A stretch of 64,000 nucleotides of DNA, taken from positions 1,200-65,199 of the forward strand of contig JBJMGU010000271.1 of the NCBI GenBank assembly GCA_045807765.1. Direction: 5' to 3'. Below are positions 17,240-50,008 of the stretch, in pieces. Numbering within the stretch: position 1 is the first letter of the stretch; the number at the start of each line of letters is the position of its first letter. Source of the DNA: Blastocatellia bacterium. GTDB lineage: Bacteria; Acidobacteriota; Blastocatellia; UBA7656. The notes beneath the pieces are model-generated. The model was given only the letters and a program-made list of their open reading frames with translations, did no database searches and was not told the DNA's origin. A program made the position numbers and the translations under genes.

Positions 17240-17454
17240 TCGCCGTCTCCATCATCTGCCCTGCGAAGCATCCGTGTCGGTCATCAACTCACAGGCTCTT
17301 ACGACCATGCTTAACTATGGCGTAAGCAACCGCCGCGAGCAAGCATGCGCGGGGCGCGTTTCCCACTTGACAGAACCTGACATTCGTAGACGGATAAACT
17401 ACAATGGTGAGCGCCGCGCACCAGCCGGCAATGATTCGTGGTGAGATTGAGCCT

Positions 17455-18090
17455 ATGAGCTTACCGCATTCGCAGCCTCGTTATACAGTCGAAGAATACC
17501 TCGCGCTGGAGCGCGCCGCGGAAGCGCGTCATGAATTTCTCGATGGCCAGGTGTATCTGATGGCGGGCGAAAGCCTGGAGCACGGGACGATCTGCACCAA
17601 CCTCAGCGGCCAGCTTTATAACCAGCTCAGAGGAAAACCCTGTCAGGTGTTTTCCAAAGACATGAAAGTCCGCAGCGGCCCGGAGCCAAAATCGCGCTAC
17701 GAGAGCAAAGGCCTGTACTCGTATCCTGATCTGGTGGTGGTTTGCGGAGAAGCCCGGTTTCATGACGAACATCGTGACGTACTGCTCAACCCGACGGCCA
17801 TCATTGAAGTCTTATCGCCGACGACCGAAGCCTTTGACCGGGGCGAAAAATGGTCGCGTTATCAAACATGGCTGCCGTCGCTGACGCATTACGTTCTCGT
17901 CTCGCAAGCCAAGTCGCAGCTTGAACACTACCTGCGCCAGCCGAATGGCGAATGGCTTTACTCCTCTGTGAAAGAGCGAACGGGAAGTCTCTATCTTGCG
18001 GCGATTGATTCTACGCTACGGCTGGCCGAAGTTTACGACCGCGTCGTTTTTCCCATCCAGTCAGTCGAGCAGCCAGATGAAAAGGGATGA
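17455..18090 (+). CDS. Uma2-family (DUF820) putative restriction-endonuclease-like protein
   Basis: Characteristic Uma2 sequence: YTVEEYLALERAAEARHEFLDGQVYLMAGESLEHGTICTNL...PDLVVVC...EVLSPTT. Start at MSLPHS. Confidence 0.75.
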   Translation: MSLPHSQPRYTVEEYLALERAAEARHEFLDGQVYLMAGESLEHGTICTNLSGQLYNQLRGKPCQVFSKDMKVRSGPEPKSRYESKGLYSYPDLVVVCGEARFHDEHRDVLLNPTAIIEVLSPTTEAFDRGEKWSRYQTWLPSLTHYVLVSQAKSQLEHYLRQPNGEWLYSSVKERTGSLYLAAIDSTLRLAEVYDRVVFPIQSVEQPDEKG

Positions 18091-18110: not shown

Positions 18111-19115
18111 TCAGTCGGCAGTGGCCGCGAACTCGCGCCAGAGCGCCGTCAGGCGCGCTTTCAGCTCGTCATCCTTGAAGCCATGCAGGTAAGGCGAGAA
18201 GGGCTTGCGGCGGGTGTGGTAGAGGTCGAAGTAGCCGAGCATCTTTTCGTCTTCGTTGCGAATCAGCAATCGCGCAAACTGGTTGTTGTAGAGGCGATCA
18301 AAGGCCGCGTCAATTCCCTGCACCATCAAGAACTCGATGAAGCGTTCCTTGCGGTCGAGCAGGGCGATGACCAGCGGGTCGGTCGGCGCGGGGTCGCTTT
18401 CGCCTGCTTCATCGCGCCCGGCCCTCTCGGCGAGCGCGCCCTGTTTGGCGAGCTGGTCGGCGCGCTCGTTCCAGCGATTACCGGTGTGCGCGGCGACCTT
18501 GCGCCAGCGAATGCGTATGCCCGACTGGCGCACCGTTTGGCCATACGCCTGAGTCATTGACTGATTGGCCTTCCACGCGCCGGTCGCCCATTTCTCGACG
18601 CCATAGTAATCGTAAAAAATCTCGACTTCACCGACCTCGTGTTCCCGGCACCAGCCTAAGCCTTCTTCGACGGCGCGCAGCTCGCCCGCGACCTGACGCG
18701 TGCCGTTGACTTCGATTGCTGCGACCGGGCCACACAGCTCGGTGACGACCGCGCCGTCGCGCAAGATCACCACGGCGTAGCCGGTCGCATGGTTGATGTA
18801 CGAGCCGTCAACGTACATCTGCCAGCCGCGCGCCGTCGTTGCGGCTGAGCGTGGCTCGTCGTGCCAGCAATCTTCAAGACGGGCGACGAGTGCTTGGTCT
18901 TTCAGCTCATGCGTCTTCAGCGAAAAGGCGTTGGCCTTTGGGCTGAAATAGAGATTGACGTTTCCGTAATCTCGGCCACCAACCGACACGGCGACCTTAA
19001 CGGTGTAGTCGCGGAAAGAATCATCGAGGATTGCGCCGCTGATGTCGGCGCGAGCGAGCGCAGCAATGAACGCCCTGGCGCGCTCGCGCAGCTTGTCTTC
19101 AAACAGATAGCCCAT
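18111..19115 (-). CDS. RNase H-like domain protein with extra N-terminal (~90 aa) and C-terminal (~100 aa) domains
   Basis: RNase H type-1 catalytic pattern: YVDGSY (Asp), AGELRAVEEGL (Glu), IFYDY (Asp), and AAHTGNRWNERADQLA (His/Asp). The flanking regions have no recognisable family. Confidence 0.75.
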   Translation of the reverse strand: MGYLFEDKLRERARAFIAALARADISGAILDDSFRDYTVKVAVSVGGRDYGNVNLYFSPKANAFSLKTHELKDQALVARLEDCWHDEPRSAATTARGWQMYVDGSYINHATGYAVVILRDGAVVTELCGPVAAIEVNGTRQVAGELRAVEEGLGWCREHEVGEVEIFYDYYGVEKWATGAWKANQSMTQAYGQTVRQSGIRIRWRKVAAHTGNRWNERADQLAKQGALAERAGRDEAGESDPAPTDPLVIALLDRKERFIEFLMVQGIDAAFDRLYNNQFARLLIRNEDEKMLGYFDLYHTRRKPFSPYLHGFKDDELKARLTALWREFAATAD

Positions 19116-19226: not shown

Positions 19227-21458
19227 TCACTCTCTGGCCGAAGTATCTGTGATAGAGGTATTCGGGCGGCTGTATTGAAAATGCGTGGCGTCGCCGTCGC
19301 CGCCCCAACTGAAATCGAACTCGCGGAGAACCGGCACCAGCTCAAGGATGGAGCCGCGCTGGCCGAGCGGCATGGCGTGCTGGCCGGGCTGATTGTATTG
19401 GCGATTGAGGTCGAAGCCAATGCCGAGCGCGTGCGTCGAAGGACCGCCGCCCTGGCCACGCTTGAAGTTGAGGATCAGCGGATCGTCAGGCCGCACAAAG
19501 CCGTAATCCCAGGTCAGGACGCGGTCCAGCAAGCCGCGCGCTTTGATCGCCCGGAACGCCTGCTGCAACTGCGCCGCCGCTATGCGATTGAACTTGATCG
19601 TGCTGTCGTACGGCTGATCGATCTCGCGCAGCTCCGGCACATTAACATCAATGAGGTTACGTTCAATCCAATTGTCGTAAAACTCCATGCGGCCATCGGC
19701 GAGGCGGCGCAATTTAATGTCGCCGACAATCGGGTGCGGATAGGTGACTTCGTCGCCTCGGAAATAGTCGTCAGCAATGTCGAGCAGTTTCTCGTTCTGG
19801 CGACCCAGCGATTCTTCTTGTTGCAAGCGCTCCTCGACGACCTTGTCGCGCTGTTGTTCGACGACGTGCAGGAGCTGGTCTTTGTGCTCGGCCTCGCGCG
19901 CCAGGTTATAGTTTTTAACCAGCGTATAAGCGCCCGCCGAGCCGATCAACAGCAACGGCACGAGGATATAAAAGGTCATCACTAGGTAGCGATGGCGGCG
20001 GCGGCTGATGTCGAGAAAGCTCATCGCCGCAGCAAAATCTTCGTTGTAACGCGCCGCCCACGCTGCCGTCGGCTGCTTCTGCGCCTGCCATTCGAGCGCG
20101 TAGCCGAGCTGCGGATTGCGCCACGGCTTCGAGCGCCCCTCGCGGTAGAGCAGCGCGGCGTCAACGATGCGCAGGTAAATCTTGCGCGATTCGGCTTCGA
20201 GGTTGACCCAGTCGCCGAGCCGTGTCCACTGGCGGATCAAGCTCTCGTGCGAGATGTCTATGGTCACGTCGCCGGTCAACTTGTCTTCGTAGAGGTTGAC
20301 GAAGTTGCGCCGATTCGAGCGGAAGCGCTCGATGATGGCAAGCAGTGGCGGGCGCGCTGCTCCGGTAATGGCTTCGATCTCGCTTAGACGCGCCGGGCGG
20401 CGGATGCGGCGGCCCCGCGCGTCTGTGTCGGTGAGCGCCTGGAACATGCGTTTGGTAATTCTTACCTCGTCGTCGTTCAAGCCGGCGAGGGCCGCCTCGG
20501 CATCTTTCGACAACGCCTCCTTGATGGTGCCGATGTTCTCGTAATGTGTCAGATCAATCGCGCCTTCGCGCGTGCGTTGCCAGTCTTCCCATGTGCGCAT
20601 CAAGGCATGCTGCATGACCGGCAACTGGTCGGACTTATCGCCGGCGTCGTTCAGCACGCGGTCGAGCAGGCGCTGTGAGATGCTCGCGCCGAACAAGCGG
20701 ATCGGCCCTTCGATGGCTTCCTGCCGCTGGCGGCGCGTCAGGCGCGGCACCAGGTATTGACTCTGGTTCATGGCTTCCGGCAGGCCGAAGAAGTTGTCAC
20801 AGTCGCCGATGAAATCCGAGCGCATGGTGAGGACGACGAAGATCGCCAGCTCGCGCTGCGCCGCCAGCTCCAAGATCAGCGCCACGAACTCTTCGGCTTC
20901 GTTGCGCTTTACCGGATCGTCATCACGCAAGGCGAAGCGGAACAGCTCTTCAAACTGGTCAACCAGCAGCAGCAGGTTAGAGTCTTCATCGCCAAGCGCC
21001 TCTTGCAGGCGAGTGATGACGGCCTGCGCGCCTTCGCCGCGAACCGCTTCGACCAGGCTGTTGATGTTCGCCTTGCTGGCTTCGACCGAAGCGGCTTCGA
21101 GCAGCGCGACGGCCATGTTTTCAAGCGGCGCGTCGCCCGGCTTCATGGTGGCGACGTGCCAGAGGTCGCGTTCTTCGACCAGGAAGCCGGCCTTGAGCTT
21201 GGGGATCAACCCGGCGCGCACCAACGACGATTTGCCGCAGCCCGAGCTGCCGACGACCGCGAGAAAGCGGGTGGCGTGCAGCCTTTGCAGCAGCTCGATG
21301 GCCTGCTCGCGCCGCCCGAAAAAGAGCAAGCTCTCTTCGCTCTCGAACGGGCGCAGCCCGACAAATGGGTTCAGCGCCTCGGTGCCGGCATCGCTGCCTG
21401 CAAGCAACGCCGGCGTCTGCTTTAAAGATCTCGTCGTACGCTCCGGTCTCATAATCAT
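19227..21458 (-). CDS. Transmembrane STAND NTPase (nSTAND1-like) with a C-terminal VanY/peptidase-M15-like domain
   Basis: nSTAND1 signature NPFVGLRPFESEESLLFFGRREQ..RFLAVVGSSGCGKSSLVRAGL (Walker A) and LLLLVDQFEELF (Walker B). One TM helix YLVMTFYILVPLLLIGSAGAYTLV is preceded by RRRHR. A coiled-coil region follows, then M15/VanY-like motifs IAAAQLQQAFRAIKARGLLDRVLTWDYGF, STHALGIGFD (SxHxxGxxxD) and DATHFQY ([DE]xxH[FY]xY). Confidence 0.8.
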   Translation of the reverse strand: MIMRPERTTRSLKQTPALLAGSDAGTEALNPFVGLRPFESEESLLFFGRREQAIELLQRLHATRFLAVVGSSGCGKSSLVRAGLIPKLKAGFLVEERDLWHVATMKPGDAPLENMAVALLEAASVEASKANINSLVEAVRGEGAQAVITRLQEALGDEDSNLLLLVDQFEELFRFALRDDDPVKRNEAEEFVALILELAAQRELAIFVVLTMRSDFIGDCDNFFGLPEAMNQSQYLVPRLTRRQRQEAIEGPIRLFGASISQRLLDRVLNDAGDKSDQLPVMQHALMRTWEDWQRTREGAIDLTHYENIGTIKEALSKDAEAALAGLNDDEVRITKRMFQALTDTDARGRRIRRPARLSEIEAITGAARPPLLAIIERFRSNRRNFVNLYEDKLTGDVTIDISHESLIRQWTRLGDWVNLEAESRKIYLRIVDAALLYREGRSKPWRNPQLGYALEWQAQKQPTAAWAARYNEDFAAAMSFLDISRRRHRYLVMTFYILVPLLLIGSAGAYTLVKNYNLAREAEHKDQLLHVVEQQRDKVVEERLQQEESLGRQNEKLLDIADDYFRGDEVTYPHPIVGDIKLRRLADGRMEFYDNWIERNLIDVNVPELREIDQPYDSTIKFNRIAAAQLQQAFRAIKARGLLDRVLTWDYGFVRPDDPLILNFKRGQGGGPSTHALGIGFDLNRQYNQPGQHAMPLGQRGSILELVPVLREFDFSWGGDGDATHFQYSRPNTSITDTSARE

Positions 21459-21466
21459 CTAACGGC

Positions 21467-22984
21467 TCAAACCGCTTCGAGCAGCGGCTTGAGCGCCTGC
21501 GGGTTGCCGAGGTCAGCCGCGTCAAAGGTATAAACCGGGAACAGGCCGAGGCGGAAATCGCTGTCGACGCTCTTGCGCCGCGCGCCCGCATAAAAGACGC
21601 CGCAGGCTTTCAGCGGGCAGCCTTCGGTGATGGCGATCTCGACTGCCGCGCCGAGCCGCGCCCGCACCCATTCCGAAGTCACCGAGCCGAAGACGATGAT
21701 CAGCTTGGTCACCTGCTTCAAGCGCTCTTCAAGGATGCGAATGTTTTTGCGCGGGTCATCTTCTTCAGGGTTGATGTAGGGCTGCACGTTCTTGTCCGAC
21801 AGAAAGCGGATCAGGTCGAGGGCGTAGAGCTGATCTTTGAAGTGCGTATCAACCAGCGCCGCCATCGGCGCGGCATCGGCGGGCGGGCGGCGTTGCGCGG
21901 CTTCGATCTCGTCGAGGATTTCGCGCGGCAACTCGGCGGGCAGGCCGCGCAGGAATTTGTAGGTCGCCTCGCTGCGCTCGCCGTTCTCCAGGCGGTCGAG
22001 GAACTCTTTATACGTGCCGTCTTCAAGCGCCGCCAGATCAAGCGCTTTCGGCACCCAGATGAACTGCGAGCGCGCATGCTCAATGCTCAGCTCGACCTGG
22101 CGCTGGGCATAGGATTTCTCTTCGGCGTCTTCAATCTCGCGGCCCGGAAAGGTGTCGAGCAGATGCACAGCCAGATGCGCGCCGCTAATGGCAGCAATGG
22201 CGCGCTCTTCGTGTGCCGCGGCTTCGTAAGGCGGCGGCACATCGGCGATGACCCGTATGCCTTTGCTCTGTAGCTCGGCGGTGACGCGCCTGCGCAACGT
22301 GCGCAGCGAATCGGCGGTGTCGGCCAGAAAGACCGTGAAGGCGTCCGACGCCGGCGACGCGGCACTCGCGCCAGCGGCGGGCGCCGCCGTAACCGGCGCA
22401 GACGCGACCGACGGCGCCGCGGCGGGTAAGCTCTCTTTCATTGCGCAGAGCGTGCGATAAACCGCTTCGACGAGCTTGCGCATCTGCAATTGAAAAGGTT
22501 TCTCCTGCGGGTCTGCCGGGTAGCCGAAATCGTCCGGCGATTCCGCATCGTGAAACGGAAAGCCGCTCGTGCGCCCGAACTCGGTGGGCCATTCGCCGAA
22601 CGGGATGTTATTGAGCAGCACGTTAAAGATGCGCAGCCGGTCGCCGACCGCCAGCCCCGATGGCTCTTTGCCGGCCTTGGCCTCGAACAAGCGCAGCTCC
22701 TGTTTGCAGTAATCCGAGGCCAGATAACCGGACGAGTTGAGGGCGATGAAGATCGCTGAACTGTTGATGGCGTCTTCGATTGTCTTGTCGAAAAGCTGGC
22801 TGCCTTCGAGCGTCGGGTCTTGCCAGATTTTGACCGCGCCCATGCGCCCAACGCGCTTCGACATTTGCAGGTCGAGGTGTTCGCGAAACTGCGTCACCCA
22901 GCCATCGGCTGCATCAACCGCGGCGTTGTCAACGTGCGCGTAGCTGATAAAAATGTCGTGCTGAAAACCGGGTAAGTACCCCAT
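21467..22984 (-). CDS. TIR-domain protein; the C-terminal half has a second TIR-like/Rossmann-like region
   Basis: N-terminal TIR motifs HDIFISYAHVDN and SSAIFIALNSSGYLASDYCKQEL. ATG at 22984 has GGAGG 5 nt upstream (the longer ORF to 23032 would need a TTG start). Its stop is 8 nt before the STAND gene start. Confidence 0.8.
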   Translation of the reverse strand: MGYLPGFQHDIFISYAHVDNAAVDAADGWVTQFREHLDLQMSKRVGRMGAVKIWQDPTLEGSQLFDKTIEDAINSSAIFIALNSSGYLASDYCKQELRLFEAKAGKEPSGLAVGDRLRIFNVLLNNIPFGEWPTEFGRTSGFPFHDAESPDDFGYPADPQEKPFQLQMRKLVEAVYRTLCAMKESLPAAAPSVASAPVTAAPAAGASAASPASDAFTVFLADTADSLRTLRRRVTAELQSKGIRVIADVPPPYEAAAHEERAIAAISGAHLAVHLLDTFPGREIEDAEEKSYAQRQVELSIEHARSQFIWVPKALDLAALEDGTYKEFLDRLENGERSEATYKFLRGLPAELPREILDEIEAAQRRPPADAAPMAALVDTHFKDQLYALDLIRFLSDKNVQPYINPEEDDPRKNIRILEERLKQVTKLIIVFGSVTSEWVRARLGAAVEIAITEGCPLKACGVFYAGARRKSVDSDFRLGLFPVYTFDAADLGNPQALKPLLEAV

Positions 22985-23122
22985 CACGCCTCCGGTCGTG
23001 CGCAAGGTGGTTGGCTTGCGCAGCGTCTTCAACTTGTTGCTGGTAATCTGTTGAGTGCGGAGTAAGGGTAAGCGAAAACACTGATGAATGCAACGCGATC
23101 AGTAAAGCGGCGGCGTGGTGGC

Positions 23123-25422
23123 TCATTGCTGGAGCCTGGCGTACTCGCGCCTGGCTTCGATCAAGACGGGGATGTCCGCGTCGGCGTCTTTCCACAGCGC
23201 CAGGAAGTCTTTATAAGCCTTGCGGCTTTTGTCTGTCTCGCCGCTGAGCGCCGCCGCGCGTGCGAGTCCGAGGTGCGCAAGGGGATATAGATAAGAAGTA
23301 GGATCCCATCCCCGGTGATCGAGGATCTTTTGGAACTCGGCTCGCGCTTCTGCCCCCGCTTTTTGTCGGAGATAGCCTTGTGCTCGAATATAATTGGGCC
23401 AGAACAACATCGCCGCTTCATAAGGGCCAACCGATTGCAGGAGTTGTATGGCGCCGGCTGTATTATCCTTGCGCAGTTCGATGGCCGCCCGAATCGTCGG
23501 CAGCCAGATGGCGTTGACCCAAGTAACTTTCGGATTCTCATTGGCGAGTTCATTGGCAAGCGATTGCGCCTGAGCGCTTTCGCCACACAACGCGAGCGCG
23601 AGCGCTTCGTACACCTTCGGGGTATCGTTAGGCGCTAAGGTTAGAGCCCGCGCGGCGTTTTCCCGTGCTTGACGGCAATTACCCAGGACAGCGTTTCTCG
23701 CTGCATCCTGCGCAGCCAGGTTTGCCGCAGTCTCTGCGTCACCGGGCTGGGCACGCCCAATCTCGCGATGGGAGAATTCCTGGACCTGTCGCATCTGTCC
23801 CGAAAACGCCGCCGTTAAGGCTTGCCAGGCGAACGCCCCAGAGCCATTTGACGGCTCGCTCGCCCAATCAATTTGTTGCTTCATCGCCGCCGCATCACCG
23901 TCTATGAAAGCGAGCATGTAAAGGTGGTAGTGGAATATTCTGCCATCCCCTTTCATTGTCGGTGCCTGCTCCAGAATCTCCCTGGCCTCGGCGAAACGCC
24001 CGAGATAGATGAGTTGCGCGGCGAGGTTGTCATACGGTAAAGCCCAATTGGGGAGCAGGCTAACGACTTCCCGGAACTCTTCCACGGCGTTTTCGTTTTG
24101 CCCGAGCGTGCCATACAAAATGCCCAGCAGGTTGCGCGCCGGTGGATAACGGGGATATATCTGCTTCAGCCATCCCGCCGCTTCGATGGCGTTTTCCAAT
24201 TCTCCGGAAACGTTTAAGTAGTATTGCGCCGTAATCCAAAGCTTTTCCCGCTCACTTGCTCGCTCGCGCAATTCAAACGCTTTGGTGGCGTATTCGCGAG
24301 CCGCTTTTGTCTCCCCGACGTTAAGGCACGTGACTGCCAGGACGCCGTAGCCAAGGGCGAATTGCGGGTCGAGTGCCACGGCGCTCTTGAGCAGAGGGAT
24401 GGCGTCCCGCTCTTTGCCTTGCAAATGCAGGTCGCGTCCGGCAGAGAAGGCCTTGAAAGCCTCGAGTGACGAAGTCGTGACGGCCATGGGCGCATCGAAC
24501 TTCTGGATCGTGCTCAGCGACTCGCCCAGCTTCTCGCGCAAACGCCTGGCCATCTTGCCCAGCACGCTCAGCACCTGCTCCTTGGTCTCGGCCTCCTCCT
24601 GTTGACGCGCCAGCACATCGCCGGTGCGCGCGTTGGTTGCCTCCAGCGCAATGACGTAGTGGCTGCCGAGATTCGAGACCGATCCCACCAGCACGGCTTT
24701 GATTCCCTGACGTTCGCAAATCTCGCGCGCGATCTCTTTCGTCACGCGCTCGTCGAGCGGGCGTCCCATGTAACGCAGCGTCTCCCGCACGCGCTCGTCC
24801 GAGAATAGATTCAAGAAGGGGGATTGCTCCAGTTGCACCGCCAGCGCCGTCTTCAGCGTGCCGTCAAGGACCGCATCGCCCGTCGTGTTGATAAAGTCCG
24901 CCAGCAGGATGGTGTCTTTATCAGTCAGTGCTGGTGCGCGGTTAAAGTAGAAGAAAAGGCCTGCCGCCGCGACGATCAACGTCGCCACCGCAATCATCGC
25001 TAACCGCTTCGTCCTTTGCCGCCTGGCCACGGCCTTCGCCTTGATGCCTTCATCCGTCGGTTGGCTCTGCGCTGGCGCTGCCGCCGCGCCGTTCTCCTCC
25101 CACGACTCCTTCACGCTGACTTTGAAGCGATAGCCGCGCTTCGGGATGGTCTCGATGTAGGGCGGCCCTTCGCCCAGGGCCTGCCGCAGCGTGAAGATGT
25201 TGCGCGTCAGGTTGCCTTCCTCAACGAAGCTGTCGCGCCACACCAGCCGCATTAACTCGTCTTTCTCGACCACGTGTTCGCTGCGTTCGACGAGCACCAA
25301 CAGCACGTCGAAGGCTTTCGGCGTCAGCCCCACGGGTTGACCATCGCGCCGCAGAACCCGCTCGCCGGCATCCAGGCAGAACGGGCCGAACTCGTACAGG
25401 TGCTTTGTTTTGACTGCCATAA
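23123..25422 (-). CDS. Transcriptional regulator: OmpR/PhoB-type winged-helix DNA-binding domain, TM helix and TPR repeats
   Basis: Winged-helix sequence VGLTPKAFDVLLVLVERSEHVVEKDELMRLVWRDSFVEEGNLTRNIFTLRQALG...IETIPKRGYRF. TM helix MIAVATLIVAAAGLFFYF, then a long TPR-rich C-terminus. Start at MAVKTK, with GGAG upstream. Confidence 0.8.
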
Positions 25423-25604
25423 CGGCTCCAAGAAGTCTGTAAGAACTTTCCAATGATTTTCCAAGCCGATTGAAAGGACTTCCAACCCGCGCTTCGACTA
25501 CGGTCAGCCGTGAGATGAGCCGGTATCGGATGGACAAAGAGTACGGAAACTTGATGCCGCGCCCATTCTAGTCGAAAGCCTCGGTCAGCGAAAGGAGAAA
25601 CCCC

Positions 25605-26273
25605 ATGCGGTGGATCACTCAGCAGGCAAGCGACATTTACGATTCTCTGAAGCAATCAAGCCCAGCGGCAAGGCGCGTCATTGCCAGCACCCTTTCTCCG
25701 GCCCTCCTCATCGCGGCGCTCACTGTCTCGGCGACGACAGCCGCATCCGCGCAACCGAACTCGGATTCGCGAGCGGTTAAGCATTCCCGCTTTGACACCG
25801 CCAGGATCAATGAGCCGGTGGTCAGAGAATTCAACAACGCCTGGCAGAGTGTCGGCTGCGGCGTTCTAAATACAGAAATCGTCGTCTTGATCTTCAAGAA
25901 AGCTGATGGCGCTTACATGGCGGCTTCGCTGGGCATGTCCAACGAGAGTAAGCAATTCAGCTTTGTCTGGAATCCGGCGACGATAGCCCTTGTGCACACC
26001 CACCCGAACACTTGTAACGAACGACCGAGCTGGCCGGACAGGGATATCGCCGATAAGTACCACGTGCCAATCCTCACGATTACTTCCAGAGGCATGTTCA
26101 TGTATGACCCGGAAACGAAGAAGATCAGCAAAGTGCAGGACGGCCTCAATTGGCTCAAGCTCGACAAGTGGGCGCGGAATTCATTGGTTGCTCAGGCCGC
26201 GGCTGCCGCGCCGTCGGTCAGCATCTCCATGAACTTGCGCGCCGCGGCGCTGAAGATCTTCCCTTTGCGGTGA
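25605..26273 (+). CDS. Secreted hypothetical protein with a JAB/MPN (RadC-like) metal-binding motif
   Basis: Signal peptide ...ALLIAALTVSATTAASAQP. The motif HTHPNTCNERPSWPD resembles the JAMM/RadC pattern HxHP-x5/6-PSxxD. It lies in a low-GC patch. Its 3' end overlaps the convergent lysR-type gene by about 80 nt. Confidence 0.5.
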   Translation: MRWITQQASDIYDSLKQSSPAARRVIASTLSPALLIAALTVSATTAASAQPNSDSRAVKHSRFDTARINEPVVREFNNAWQSVGCGVLNTEIVVLIFKKADGAYMAASLGMSNESKQFSFVWNPATIALVHTHPNTCNERPSWPDRDIADKYHVPILTITSRGMFMYDPETKKISKVQDGLNWLKLDKWARNSLVAQAAAAAPSVSISMNLRAAALKIFPLR

Positions 26274-46918: not shown

Positions 46919-49900
46919 TCACCGCCCTTTCTTCTTGTGCTTACCCTTTCTTTGCTTGCTAGTCGGGGGTATCCGAAAACCCGGCATCTTTCTCAAAAGT
47001 TCCTGCCTCTGCTCTCTAACCCTTTCGTAACTCGGATGGTCACTGGGAAGCCCCCGAAAGTAATCCTCAATAGTCTGCCGTGCTTCGAGGCGGCGATTTA
47101 GCTGAAAAAGAGAGTACATCACACCCACTACAGAATTAGCCGTATCAGGATGATGCTCTCCAAGTAAATCTCTGCGAATCTCCAGCCCCTTCTGCAGAAA
47201 CTCTAGTGCCCGCTTGTGGTCGCCGAGAGCGCTATAGGTACTACCAACGTTGTTGAACGACAAGGCGGTGTCAGGATGCTTGTCGCCGAACAGCTCCTGG
47301 CGAATCTCCAGCGCCCTTTGTTTAAGCTCCAGCGCCCGCTTGTGATCGCCGAGATCGCCATAAGTGCCGCCGACGTTGTCGAATGATGTGGCGGTGTCAG
47401 GATGCCTGTCGCCAAACAGCTCCTGGCGAATCTCCAGCGCTTTCTGCAGAAATTCCAGTGCGCGCTTGTGATCGCCGAGCTTACCATAACTGCTGCCAAC
47501 GTTGTTGAATGACGCGGCAGTGTCAGGATGCTTGTCGCCAAATAGCTTCTGCTGAATCTCCAGCGCTTTCTGCAGAAATTCCAGTGCGCGCTTGTGATCG
47601 CCGAGCTTACCATAACTGCTGCCAACGTTGTTGAATGACGCGGCAGTGTCAGGATGCTTGTCGCCAAACAGCTCCTGGCGAATCTCCAGCGCCTTCTGCT
47701 GAAACTCCAGCGCCCGCTTGTAATCGCCCAAAGCGGAATAACTAAAGCCAAGATCGTTTAATATATGTGCTTTCAACGCCAAATCGCTGATATTGCTTTG
47801 TTCGAAGGCTGCCCATGCTTTTTCAAGCTGCGTACGAACATCGTGGTAGCGTCCGTGATGATACGACGGATATGCTTGTAGCCACATCAAATGACTTTCG
47901 TATTTCGGCGCATATGCTGAGGCATGTTGCTCCCACGCTTGCAGGTGGTCAATCTCGCTCTCAAAAAACGGTAATTGATTGAACTCTACTCGCTTATCTT
48001 CAAACCATTTTGCCATCCGCTCACAGATTGTAGCTATCCAACTCTCCTGGCCTTTTAGTGGAACATCTTCACGCCGAACTTCGCGCACGAGCCGGTGAAT
48101 GGCATAGCTTTCTGCGGCAAGGGTCTTTTGTAGCAACCGAAGTGCAGTGCCGAGACTCAACGCGCCAGTCAATTCAGCCGGATTCGGAATATCAAGTAGT
48201 GCGCACATCAAAGATAAGCTCATCGGTGCGGAACCGCTCCACGTCAATAAATTCAGAATGTCGCGTAGTAACGGCTCGTCTTGAAAAATCCCCTCGTTGA
48301 TCTTTAGCGTCGAGTAAATGTCTTTTTCATGCTTGGTGAAGCTGCCCAGGAATTTGCCCGAAAGGGCCGCTTTGACGTTCTGTTGTAGAAGTTCCAGGTA
48401 CTGTCGCCAGGGTAGTTGCCGATAGCGGACGTAGGCCCCTGCCAGTTCAAGCGCCAGTGGGAGGCCATCTAACATTCCGGCGATTTCCCTTGCCGCTCGC
48501 GCTTCGTCTTCTCCGGCGGGCGTTTGCTCACGTCCCGCTTCCTGTAACAATAGCTTGAGCGAAAGCTCATGATCTAATAGCTTCAGTTGAACAGGCTTGA
48601 ATCCTGGTTGCTCAAGCCGGCTTGTGATGAGAATGTGGGGGCTGGCTTGCGGCTCAGGCAAGTATGGTTCGATGGCATTGGTCGCTTCAACGTTATCGAA
48701 CACCAGCAGACAATCCGAGTAAGTGCGTATACGTTGCAGGGCAATCTCCAGCTTATATTTATGCTCGGATTCCGGTGCAACCCACCGGGCTTTCTCGGCA
48801 ATGTGGATCAATTGCGAATCAATATCCTGGTCTGCATTCACCCAGATGACACCATTGGGGTATTCATTCTGAAAGCGATACGTATACTCGACGGCGAGTT
48901 GAGTCTTACCTAACCCGCCTAGCCCTTGAAACGCGGCGGTCTGGCCGATCACCGTGCGGCGGCCATTGGTGAGCTGCTCGCGCACTGCCAAAATGGTTTC
49001 CTCGCGTCCAACCACCTGAGTGCCCTTTTGCGGAAAAGGAACGTAGAAGACTGGATTGCGGGGATCGTAGGATGCGATTGGCTGACTACGAGGCGGATCG
49101 GTTTGCTCTGGCTCTGGTTTTTTTCTTGCTGGACCTGCTGCGGCAGCAACCCTGCTCAACTCACGTACTCCCTCTAGCAGCGGTAAGCCGTAATCCGCAA
49201 CCGTGACTGGCTCTACTGGCAGAGCCAATCTCTGTATATTCTCGCGCTCGGCGGCGCGAGTCAGAACGTAATGCGGGCCGGTTGTGCCATTGAAGATGTC
49301 GCTGATGCCGCGCAATTGCACACCGAAATAGGCATCATCGAGGCTGAAGCCGATAAACAAGAATGTGTGCGAGGCCATCAATTGATGCAATGTTGCCAGA
49401 GCTGCCCGGTAGCGGTGTTCAGCTTCTCCCACTTCAGGATAAAGCCGACGATAGCCATCAGGAGTTAGAATCAAATTCGTTGCGTTATGAATATAGCCAT
49501 GAAGATGCCAGACCGTTGGGTGATTTATCTCTCCGCGCAGTAAGCCACTCTGTTCAGCCGGAGCCTCAATGTCCCAAACCACCAGATCATCACGCTGAGG
49601 GCATGCCCAGTGCAGCACACGATCATAGTTGGTAGTAATAACAAGCTGGCTCCCTAATTGCCATACCGCTCTTGCTAGATCAAGACTGCTATCATCAGCG
49701 TCCTTGCTCCTGCGATCAAGATGCTCCTTAATGAACTGAAACCAAACCGGGCCTAATCCTTGCCGCGCCCGCCTTGCCGCATCGAGGTAATCAGGAGGCT
49801 CAATCTGCAATAGGCCACGCACTGTATTTGCATAAGGCGACTTCTTTTCTTCATCAAGCCGGTCTGCCGCTGCCTCAAGCAGATTCTTCCAACTAGGGAA

Positions 49901-50008
49901 AAGGCGCTCGCCATGCTTATCCTTGACGGCCATAGAAACGCCTGCACCAACAAAGGGAATCACTTTGCCTTCGCGAAGACGTTCACCCAATGTTCTTGGA
50001 ATATCCAT
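46919..50008 (-). CDS. STAND protein: N-terminal SIR2-like domain, NB-ARC-type NTPase and C-terminal TPR repeats (antiphage-STAND-like architecture)
   Basis: SIR2_2-like GKVIPFVGAGVS; P-loop GLGGLGKTQLAVEY; Walker B CLLVFDNVE. At least five 42-aa TPR units (ALEIRQELFGDKHPDTA...). The gene sits in a lower-GC island. Confidence 0.85.
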   Translation of the reverse strand: MDIPRTLGERLREGKVIPFVGAGVSMAVKDKHGERLFPSWKNLLEAAADRLDEEKKSPYANTVRGLLQIEPPDYLDAARRARQGLGPVWFQFIKEHLDRRSKDADDSSLDLARAVWQLGSQLVITTNYDRVLHWACPQRDDLVVWDIEAPAEQSGLLRGEINHPTVWHLHGYIHNATNLILTPDGYRRLYPEVGEAEHRYRAALATLHQLMASHTFLFIGFSLDDAYFGVQLRGISDIFNGTTGPHYVLTRAAERENIQRLALPVEPVTVADYGLPLLEGVRELSRVAAAAGPARKKPEPEQTDPPRSQPIASYDPRNPVFYVPFPQKGTQVVGREETILAVREQLTNGRRTVIGQTAAFQGLGGLGKTQLAVEYTYRFQNEYPNGVIWVNADQDIDSQLIHIAEKARWVAPESEHKYKLEIALQRIRTYSDCLLVFDNVEATNAIEPYLPEPQASPHILITSRLEQPGFKPVQLKLLDHELSLKLLLQEAGREQTPAGEDEARAAREIAGMLDGLPLALELAGAYVRYRQLPWRQYLELLQQNVKAALSGKFLGSFTKHEKDIYSTLKINEGIFQDEPLLRDILNLLTWSGSAPMSLSLMCALLDIPNPAELTGALSLGTALRLLQKTLAAESYAIHRLVREVRREDVPLKGQESWIATICERMAKWFEDKRVEFNQLPFFESEIDHLQAWEQHASAYAPKYESHLMWLQAYPSYHHGRYHDVRTQLEKAWAAFEQSNISDLALKAHILNDLGFSYSALGDYKRALEFQQKALEIRQELFGDKHPDTAASFNNVGSSYGKLGDHKRALEFLQKALEIQQKLFGDKHPDTAASFNNVGSSYGKLGDHKRALEFLQKALEIRQELFGDRHPDTATSFDNVGGTYGDLGDHKRALELKQRALEIRQELFGDKHPDTALSFNNVGSTYSALGDHKRALEFLQKGLEIRRDLLGEHHPDTANSVVGVMYSLFQLNRRLEARQTIEDYFRGLPSDHPSYERVREQRQELLRKMPGFRIPPTSKQRKGKHKKKGR
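47160..47770. repeat. 126-bp tandem DNA repeats (about 5 copies; copies at 47453-47578 and 47579-47704 near-identical) encoding the TPR units of the STAND protein
   Basis: cgcttgtg(g/a)tcgccgag recurs at 47202, 47327, 47453, 47579 and 47705. The two central copies differ at only about 8 positions. Confidence 0.8.

Follow-up and report, generated by a model that had tools for sequence, protein, structure and literature searches.

The window analysed here is a stretch of 64,000 nucleotides from a soil bacterium of the Blastocatellia (contig JBJMGU010000271.1, positions 1,200 to 65,199), and the subject of this report is a minus-strand gene within it that begins with ATG and encodes a protein of 743 amino acids (aa). 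From N- to C-terminus, the protein consists of an nSTAND1 nucleoside triphosphatase (NTPase) module, a transmembrane (TM) helix, a helical linker and a LAS/M15_4-like domain whose free-standing relatives are peptidoglycan hydrolases. A gene for a TIR-domain protein lies 8 bp upstream, and the two genes together form a conserved cassette (Table 1). An earlier interpretation of this DNA, made from the letters and their open reading frames (ORFs) and called here the sequence-only reading, had proposed the order nSTAND1, linker, one TM helix and M15-like domain, and this order is borne out by Pfam, Kyte-Doolittle hydropathy and motifs. The TIR partner had been overlooked, and its presence alters the mechanistic reading.

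Table 1. Features of the cassette and of the gene downstream of it, in window coordinates; residue numbers are those of the 743-aa protein unless stated otherwise.
Feature	Coordinates	Strand	Basis
743-aa nSTAND1-TM-helix-LAS/M15_4-like gene	19227..21458	-	ORF, Pfam, full-length homologues at 55-96% identity
nSTAND1 NTPase module, residues 31-442, predicted cytoplasmic	20133..21368	-	Pfam PF20703, E 7.7e-94, profile positions 1-375 of 379
Walker A GSSGCGKS, residues 70-77	21228..21251	-	Intact; columns >=90% conserved; seen in translation
Walker B LLLLVDQFEE, residues 162-171	20946..20975	-	Intact; D-Q-F-E-E columns >=90% conserved
Single TM helix YLVMTFYILVPLLLIGSAGAYTLV, residues 491-514, RRRHR just before	19917..19988	-	Kyte-Doolittle 2.08
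Amphipathic charged helical linker (predicted), residues 515-566, possible coiled coil	19761..19916	-	40% charged, periodicity 3.5-3.6 residues
LAS-fold (Peptidase_M15_4-like) domain with N-terminal beta-subdomain, residues 567-733, predicted extracytoplasmic	19260..19760	-	
H676, predicted zinc ligand 1	19431..19433	-	His in 43/45 STAND-fused homologues; codon checked
D683, predicted zinc ligand 2	19410..19412	-	Asp in 43/45 STAND-fused homologues; codon checked
H726, predicted zinc ligand 3	19281..19283	-	His in 44/45 STAND-fused homologues
D723, candidate general base, three residues before H726			Asp in 26/40 STAND-fused vs 117/127 free relatives
Partner gene, 505 aa, N-terminal TIR and two further TIR/flavodoxin-like domains	21467..22984	-	
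Partner E112 (521-aa numbering), motif S-D-Y-C-x-Q-E-L	22697..22699	-	Invariant in 40 sequences; codon checked
RNase H-like gene, 334 aa, 111 bp downstream of the STAND gene	18111..19115	-	Pfam RNase_H E 2.5e-9; PDB 2kq2 E 2.4e-17

The nSTAND1 assignment is secure, with a Pfam score of 315.8 bits against a gathering cutoff of 27.1 over nearly the full length of the profile. Only about 30 residues stand ahead of the module, the protein holds no other candidate sensor, and a second hydrophobic peak, at about residues 190-212, falls within the NTPase core. The architecture is easily missed in database annotation: orthologues are called "M15 family metallopeptidase" at NCBI, which hides the NTPase, and often "EcfA2" at JGI, which hides the peptidase fold.

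A TIR gene paired with a membrane-anchored nSTAND1 gene

The partner was called mechanically as a 521-aa ORF with a TTG start (21467-23032, minus strand). Its true start is most likely M17 of that ORF, an ATG at 22984 that gives 505 aa, because M17 is invariant in the family and a GGAGG sequence lies 5 nt upstream of it. The protein matches TIR_2 in Pfam with 40.7 bits (cutoff 28, E 3.9e-10), and its family is conserved along the full length of about 500 aa. The invariant E112 is a candidate for the catalytic Glu of NADase-type TIRs.

The pairing of the two genes was examined by tblastn over 20 fetched loci, 19 of which include upstream DNA, and in all 19 the gene immediately before the nSTAND1 gene, on its upstream side, is the partner. 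Close M15 orthologues, distant M15 forms, and GH19, WD40 and TPR forms all have it. The studied gene is thus one half of a conserved two-gene cassette of TIR and membrane-anchored nSTAND1 proteins. An implication of a constant TIR protein beside a varying C-terminal domain is that the TIR protein would be the natural effector of the system.

Beyond the NTPase core, residues 491-514 are the sole strong hydrophobic segment of the studied protein. A hydrophobic helix in the corresponding region (about 440-600), directly after the NTPase module, is found in 103 of the 120 best nSTAND1 relatives, counting those of at least 600 aa, and the equivalent helix also occurs in forms whose C-termini carry WD40 (about 30), TPR or FHA plus TPR (about 23), GH19, VanY, bPH or CHASE2 domains. 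The TM anchor is therefore a family-wide trait of this nSTAND1 subclade and not a peculiarity of the studied protein. The premise of the sequence-only reading that STAND NTPases are soluble has to be given up, since TM-bearing NACHT proteins have been described and in this subclade a TM helix is the rule.

The orientation of the protein is probably N-in/C-out, which would place the C-terminal domain outside the cytoplasm, as had been proposed from the start. In 88 of the 103 family members, Lys and Arg are richer on the NTPase-side flank of the helix (mean 5.0 vs 3.0), which under the positive-inside rule points to a cytoplasmic NTPase module, and the NTPase in any case requires cytoplasmic nucleotide. 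The same orientation is supported by a sister protein, P0104, in which a CHASE2 domain follows the equivalent TM helix and is itself followed by more hydrophobic segments. CHASE2 is an extracytoplasmic sensor domain, and a layout of the P0104 type is usual for it. Between the TM helix and the C-terminal domain of the studied protein, the linker is plausibly an amphipathic helix because of its high charge content and strong hydrophobic periodicity (Table 1), and a coiled coil is only a candidate.

A hydrolase-fold domain from a clade with relaxed catalytic residues

The AlphaFold2 model of residues 560-743, computed with 45 homologues as input, is confident (predicted local distance difference test score 91.6, predicted template-modelling score 0.86), and in it the LAS/M15 fold that had been proposed holds. 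The match of the sequence to Peptidase_M15_4 (PF13539) is marginal: the cutoff is 25 bits, the whole protein scores 25.7 and the domain taken by itself 28.2; free-standing M15_4 relatives score 45-65 bits. The Pfam VanY profile (PF02557) finds no match in the protein, and the 'SGYRS' Arg motif of VanY is not found, so that by sequence the domain groups with M15_4 and not with VanY, to which the sequence-only reading had assigned it. A sequence search of PDB chains with the ectodomain returned nothing even at E 10.

Of the three VanY motifs that had been reported, two stand, namely S674-x-H676-xx-G679-xxx-D683 and D723-xx-H726. The third, the Arg motif, does not: R656 is not conserved in homologues (the position is R, P, A, S or D), and the place of the family Arg is taken by D658. 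Conservation of the zinc ligands, also expected from the sequence-only reading, is evident in 43 of 45 STAND-fused homologues, the ligands being lost in P0029 and P0030. In P0029, two of the ligands are gone, yet the STAND ORF is intact and the TIR partner is kept, so the zinc site would seem to be dispensable in one sub-lineage while the cassette persists.

What the domain descends from can be judged from its free-standing relatives. An exhaustive HMMER search with the ectodomain gave 752 cluster representatives at E <=1e-3, mostly of 170-550 aa; a word-indexed search with the ectodomain alone gave 3 fragments only, which reflects the sensitivity limit of the index. M15_4 is matched by 127 of 128 sampled relatives, 33 of the 128 also carry PG_binding_1, and further domains among them are PG_binding_3, SLT, SH3_3, Amidase_2, and GH19 or GH46. 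Because of these companion domains, the free-standing relatives are, by their domain content, peptidoglycan hydrolases.

Comparison of 127 free relatives with 40 STAND-fused domains by alignment column indicates which residues changed upon fusion. An Arg in the 'GSFVPR' strand (column 99) is present in 121/127 free relatives and presumably has a functional role there; it occurs in 0/40 of the fused domains, where the column holds D (19), T (5), G (3), K (3) or A (2), and D658 in the studied protein. A second Arg (column 108) falls from 102/127 to 14/40, and is kept here as R667. At the position of the general base (column 164), the fused domains hold N in 8, E in 5 and A in 1 case beside the Asp retained in the others, among them D723. 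The zinc triad, in contrast, is present in 124-126 of 127 free relatives per ligand and in 38/40 fused domains (39 for H726), and is kept here. A further change is a loop, 6-7 residues long, that was inserted in the fused domains. From these alignments, catalytic residues appear relaxed in the STAND-fused M15_4 clade while the zinc triad is retained.

Among the parts of the system, the ectodomain also evolves fastest. With the orthologues in loci L001, L002, L003 and L008 it shares 74, 61, 40 and 58% identity, compared with 89, 90, 67 and 83% for the NTPase module and 91, 89, 64 and 79% for the TIR partner.

Within the wider subclade, the ectodomains found behind the shared TM helix are M15_4, VanY, GH19, WD40, TPR and CHASE2. 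GH19-type (P0065 locus) and WD40-type (L005) cassettes both have a UvrA-like gene (about 900 aa) and a GT2 gene downstream, and this shared neighbourhood suggests that ectodomains were swapped at one chromosomal site. There are many paralogous cassettes with swapped ectodomains, at times within one metagenome-assembled genome (MAG), as for L010 and L015. Blastocatellia have many members of the subclade, which is found as well in MAGs labelled Bryobacteraceae and Heliobacteriaceae. Catalytic degeneration as a general property of these fusions was considered and rejected, because the GH19 and VanY sisters look intact.

TIR and M15_4 domains have also been joined independently of STAND. In P0347, an N-terminal TIR domain is followed by a clear TM helix and a C-terminal M15_4 domain with the full catalytic set; in P0308, the TIR and M15_4 domains are separated by a weaker segment of the twin-arginine type, and the last zinc-binding His is replaced by Gly. 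Both have a receptor-like layout. The second such fusion was missed by phmmer and by a custom TIR hidden Markov model and was detected by the Pfam scan. As a separate observation, a distant M15-type cassette (P0034) has a cell-wall-related neighbour directly downstream, a Beta-lactamase/PBP-like gene (PF00144; L004, 9930-11582, plus strand).

Possible functions of the cassette

The sequence-only reading had left two possibilities for the C-terminal domain, a sensor of envelope disturbance or a murein-cleaving effector. Both survive, and the evidence leans to a sensor. We therefore favour a model in which the cassette is an outside-in receptor composed of a periplasmic sensor for a peptidoglycan ligand, a STAND switch and a TIR effector, and we give it a probability of roughly 0.45. 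In this model, the NTPase module would lie in the cytoplasm, and the TM helix and the long amphipathic helix would place the LAS/M15_4 domain in the periplasm. The ectodomain, descended from peptidoglycan hydrolases, would chiefly serve to sense a ligand, which it would bind in a zinc-dependent way at the metal site that it has kept; a candidate ligand is a structure derived from peptidoglycan, for instance stem peptides that wall damage releases or exposes. Ligand binding or clustering would be signalled through the helix and the TM segment, the STAND module would be set free for nucleotide exchange and oligomerisation, and the oligomer would assemble the partner TIR domains in a form that is active as an NADase or produces a signal.

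There are several reasons to favour a sensor. The TIR partner stays the same whichever ectodomain is present, and the charge bias of the TM flanks places the ectodomain on the outer side. The variable C-terminus sits where classical STAND proteins carry their sensor, and binding or sensor modules (WD40, TPR and CHASE2) follow the equivalent TM helix in relatives. Catalytic residues are relaxed in the STAND-fused clade and the zinc site is lost in the P0029 lineage. The ectodomain evolves fastest and appears to be swapped in place. Finally, TIR-TM-M15_4 fusions exist without STAND, one with a dead site and one with an intact site.

Other observations weigh against the outside-in model. The studied protein keeps the zinc triad, D723 and R667, together with R656, two residues from the lost family Arg, and because of these residues its ectodomain could still be an active peptidase. 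Catalytic residues are also apparently intact in sister ectodomains, the GH19 domain of P0065 and the VanY domains of P0070, P0074 and P0091. It is because of this near-complete catalytic set and these intact sisters that our estimate is no higher. In the literature searched, we found no demonstration of outside-to-inside signalling by a STAND protein. The orthologues come from MAGs of uncultured Blastocatellia (Acidobacteriota), and there is no cultured host. The surroundings are not those of a defence island or mobile element: gene order around the locus is conserved in Blastocatellia orthologues as distant as 55% identity, with LysR, MFS, GH57 and TreY-like genes adjoining, and the window is ordinary chromosome (purD, methylmalonyl-CoA mutase, PPDK, HypF, GH57 and a TreY-like gene). 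PADLOC defence models gave no system-level match, and an NCBIfam scan likewise gave no system-level assignment; in PADLOC the STAND protein has P-loop-level matches only (mad8, mad3) and the partner a TIR-domain-level match to ThsB only (E 7e-9), and the locus has no ThsA-like gene. An immune role is thus not supported by genomic context.

The retained catalytic residues of the studied protein and of the GH19 and VanY sisters are what would be expected if the periplasmic M15_4 domain were an active zinc peptidase controlled from the cytoplasm by the STAND ATPase, much as the FtsEX ATPase controls periplasmic cell-wall hydrolases. Once activated, the domain would cleave cross-links or stem peptides of peptidoglycan, and the cell would lyse or its wall be remodelled; the TIR protein would be either an additional effector or the input. 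The close free-standing relatives, all of them peptidoglycan hydrolases, fit this alternative, and for some NTPase conflict systems the literature interprets the variable C-terminal region as an effector. A regulated murein hydrolase is the strongest competitor of the receptor model, yet we consider it less probable, because WD40, TPR and CHASE2 domains, which cannot be lytic effectors, occupy the equivalent position in about half of the relatives, the STAND-fused M15_4 domains have lost the family Arg in 40/40 cases and show a relaxed general base, one lineage keeps the cassette without the zinc ligands, and a constant TIR effector is already present.

The genomic setting raises a different alternative, namely that the cassette serves housekeeping envelope signalling and not immunity. 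In the manner of PASTA-domain Ser/Thr kinases, the receptor would monitor how the cell makes or turns over its own wall, and would tune physiology through TIR-derived nucleotides, with no abortive infection. The synteny noted above, which speaks for vertical inheritance, the housekeeping character of the window and the lack of a match to known defence models in PADLOC are all in line with this. Such a role is nonetheless quite improbable in our view, given the many paralogous cassettes with swapped ectodomains (including two in one MAG), which form repertoires typical of conflict systems, the rapid evolution of the ectodomain, and the fact that the TIR-STAND pairs characterised to date are immune systems. 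Least probable of all is that the LAS-fold domain is a tether that binds peptidoglycan and fixes the STAND-TIR complex at an envelope site, the trigger being cytoplasmic or in the membrane: a relaxed catalytic site with fold and metal site kept would suit it, as would the suggestion of Kibby et al. that small C-terminal domains may tether bacterial NACHT proteins to endogenous components, but a tether leaves the protein with no other candidate sensor, either in the short stretch before the NTPase module or after it, and leaves the rapid divergence and swapping of ectodomains unexplained.

An extension of the outside-in receptor model to the whole nSTAND1 subclade is more doubtful than the model for the studied protein itself. 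All members would then be NLR-like receptors with periplasmic sensors (M15_4, VanY, GH19, WD40, TPR or CHASE2) and a dedicated TIR output. If this were true, the studied member would detect peptidoglycan damage or foreign muropeptides, arising for example from the action of predators, phage lysins or type VI amidases, ahead of any invasion of the cytoplasm or in its absence, and the ligand logic of NOD1/2 and a Toll-like topology would be combined in one bacterial system.

Neighbouring genes and known systems

The gene downstream of the STAND gene encodes an RNase H-like protein (Table 1). It is found beside the STAND gene in close orthologues only and is absent from distant M15 cassettes; it was therefore set aside as an integral third component of the cassette, and is possibly a lineage-specific accessory or third component. 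Its core is nearest to 2kq2, an uncharacterised RNase H-related protein, and its N- and C-terminal extensions, each of about 100 aa, are alike (pairwise E 3e-4). A scan for promoters and terminators between the TIR, STAND and RNase H-like genes gave nothing convincing, with counts at or below the shuffled expectation, and the arrangement is compatible with an operon. Adjoining the RNase H-like gene on the opposite strand is a gene for a Uma2-family putative restriction endonuclease (17404-18090, plus strand; E 2.3e-30).

On the other side of the cassette, between the LysR and TIR genes, an 804-aa protein (23123-25537, minus strand) combines an OmpR-type winged helix (Trans_reg_C) with TPR repeats, and, judging from the sequence, a hydrophobic stretch may separate the two. 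L002 and L003 lack this gene at the equivalent position, which in L001 is taken by a short TPR gene; in L006, a gene resembling it is found close to the TPR-type cassette. The window also has a 222-aa ORF at 25605-26273 (plus strand). Its N-terminus resembles a signal peptide, an 'HTHPN...S..D' stretch in it recalls a JAMM/MPN+ metal site, and Pfam gave no match at E 1e-5. Farther away, the window contains a second STAND protein, of the classical soluble kind, a 1029-aa SIR2_2-NB-ARC-TPR protein (46919-50008, minus strand) encoded in the lowest-GC stretch of the window (0.53-0.57 vs about 0.60 elsewhere). This gene resembles an Avs-type defence gene and was possibly acquired horizontally.

To our knowledge, every characterised bacterial STAND immune sensor reads cytoplasmic cues, mostly phage proteins. 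If the studied protein is a receptor, extracytoplasmic signals would be able to drive a STAND/NLR switch by way of a single TM helix, and peptidoglycan-hydrolase folds would have been recruited as bacterial pattern-recognition modules, in parallel to animal NOD1/2. The subclade would then also be a natural domain-swap set (M15_4, VanY, GH19, WD40, TPR and CHASE2) for studying STAND activation across a membrane. If instead the protein is an ATP-gated murein hydrolase, it would represent a new mode of autolysis control.

We found no description of a STAND protein with a LAS/M15 ectodomain, or of this particular family, in the literature searched. The closest relatives by NTPase are the nSTAND1-clade proteins of conflict systems (Kaur, Iyer, Burroughs, Aravind 2021, eLife, PMC8195603), with which the studied protein shares a near end-to-end nSTAND1 match and which list TIR among their effectors. 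The nSTAND1 proteins presented in the accessible part of that paper carry effector-associated adaptor domains or FGE/C-lectin sensors, whereas the studied protein lacks an N-terminal adaptor, has its TIR encoded by a separate, strictly linked gene, and has a membrane-anchored C-terminus with a peptidoglycan-hydrolase fold.

Membrane-bound STAND proteins have precedents. For bacterial NACHT proteins with TM regions, Kibby et al. (bioRxiv 10.1101/2022.07.19.500537) predict that signals within the membrane or from the periplasm are sensed, and a NACHT protein diversified by a diversity-generating retroelement (DGR) has a predicted periplasmic C-lectin sensor (PMC10907252). These are like the studied protein in being STAND NTPases predicted to read such signals, and differ in belonging to the NACHT clade, in having multiple TM segments or a lectin sensor, and in lacking a LAS/M15 ectodomain and an obligatory TIR partner gene; neither source studied the TM forms mechanistically. 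The Avs1-4 proteins and newer families (PMC13581612) follow the same plan, in which a sensor is combined with an NTPase switch and oligomerisation activates the effector. They are soluble, bind phage proteins in the cytoplasm and carry the effector as an N-terminal fusion, whereas the studied protein has a predicted extracytoplasmic sensor and a separate effector gene.

The ectodomain can be set beside the LAS peptidases, such as VanY_B (5zhf), LdcB (4jid), VanX (1r44) and the endolysins Ply500 (2vo9) and LysB4 (6akv). Unlike M15_4/LAS peptidases, it is fused behind a STAND module and a TM helix, has its conserved Arg replaced (D658), carries the loop insertion of 6-7 residues and has no peptidoglycan-binding module. 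The N-terminal signalling domain of Hedgehog is a precedent for non-enzymatic use of the LAS fold, although Hedgehog is a eukaryotic secreted ligand in an unrelated context. Toll-like receptors (TLRs) have an extracellular sensor, one TM helix and a cytoplasmic TIR domain, and P0347 and P0308 present a TLR-like layout in bacteria, as an analogy only. NOD1 and NOD2 are STAND-family receptors of peptidoglycan fragments. Both are cytosolic and have LRRs, TLRs have no NTPase, and homology of their sensors to that of the studied protein is not implied.

Taken against these systems, the studied protein belongs to a TIR-STAND conflict or signalling system that is distinguished by a family-wide membrane anchor, a hydrolase-fold module predicted to be extracytoplasmic, and a separate linked TIR gene. 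Membrane anchoring itself is neither unique nor unprecedented; outside-in signalling by a STAND protein and a peptidoglycan-directed NLR-like receptor in bacteria would, if shown, be new.

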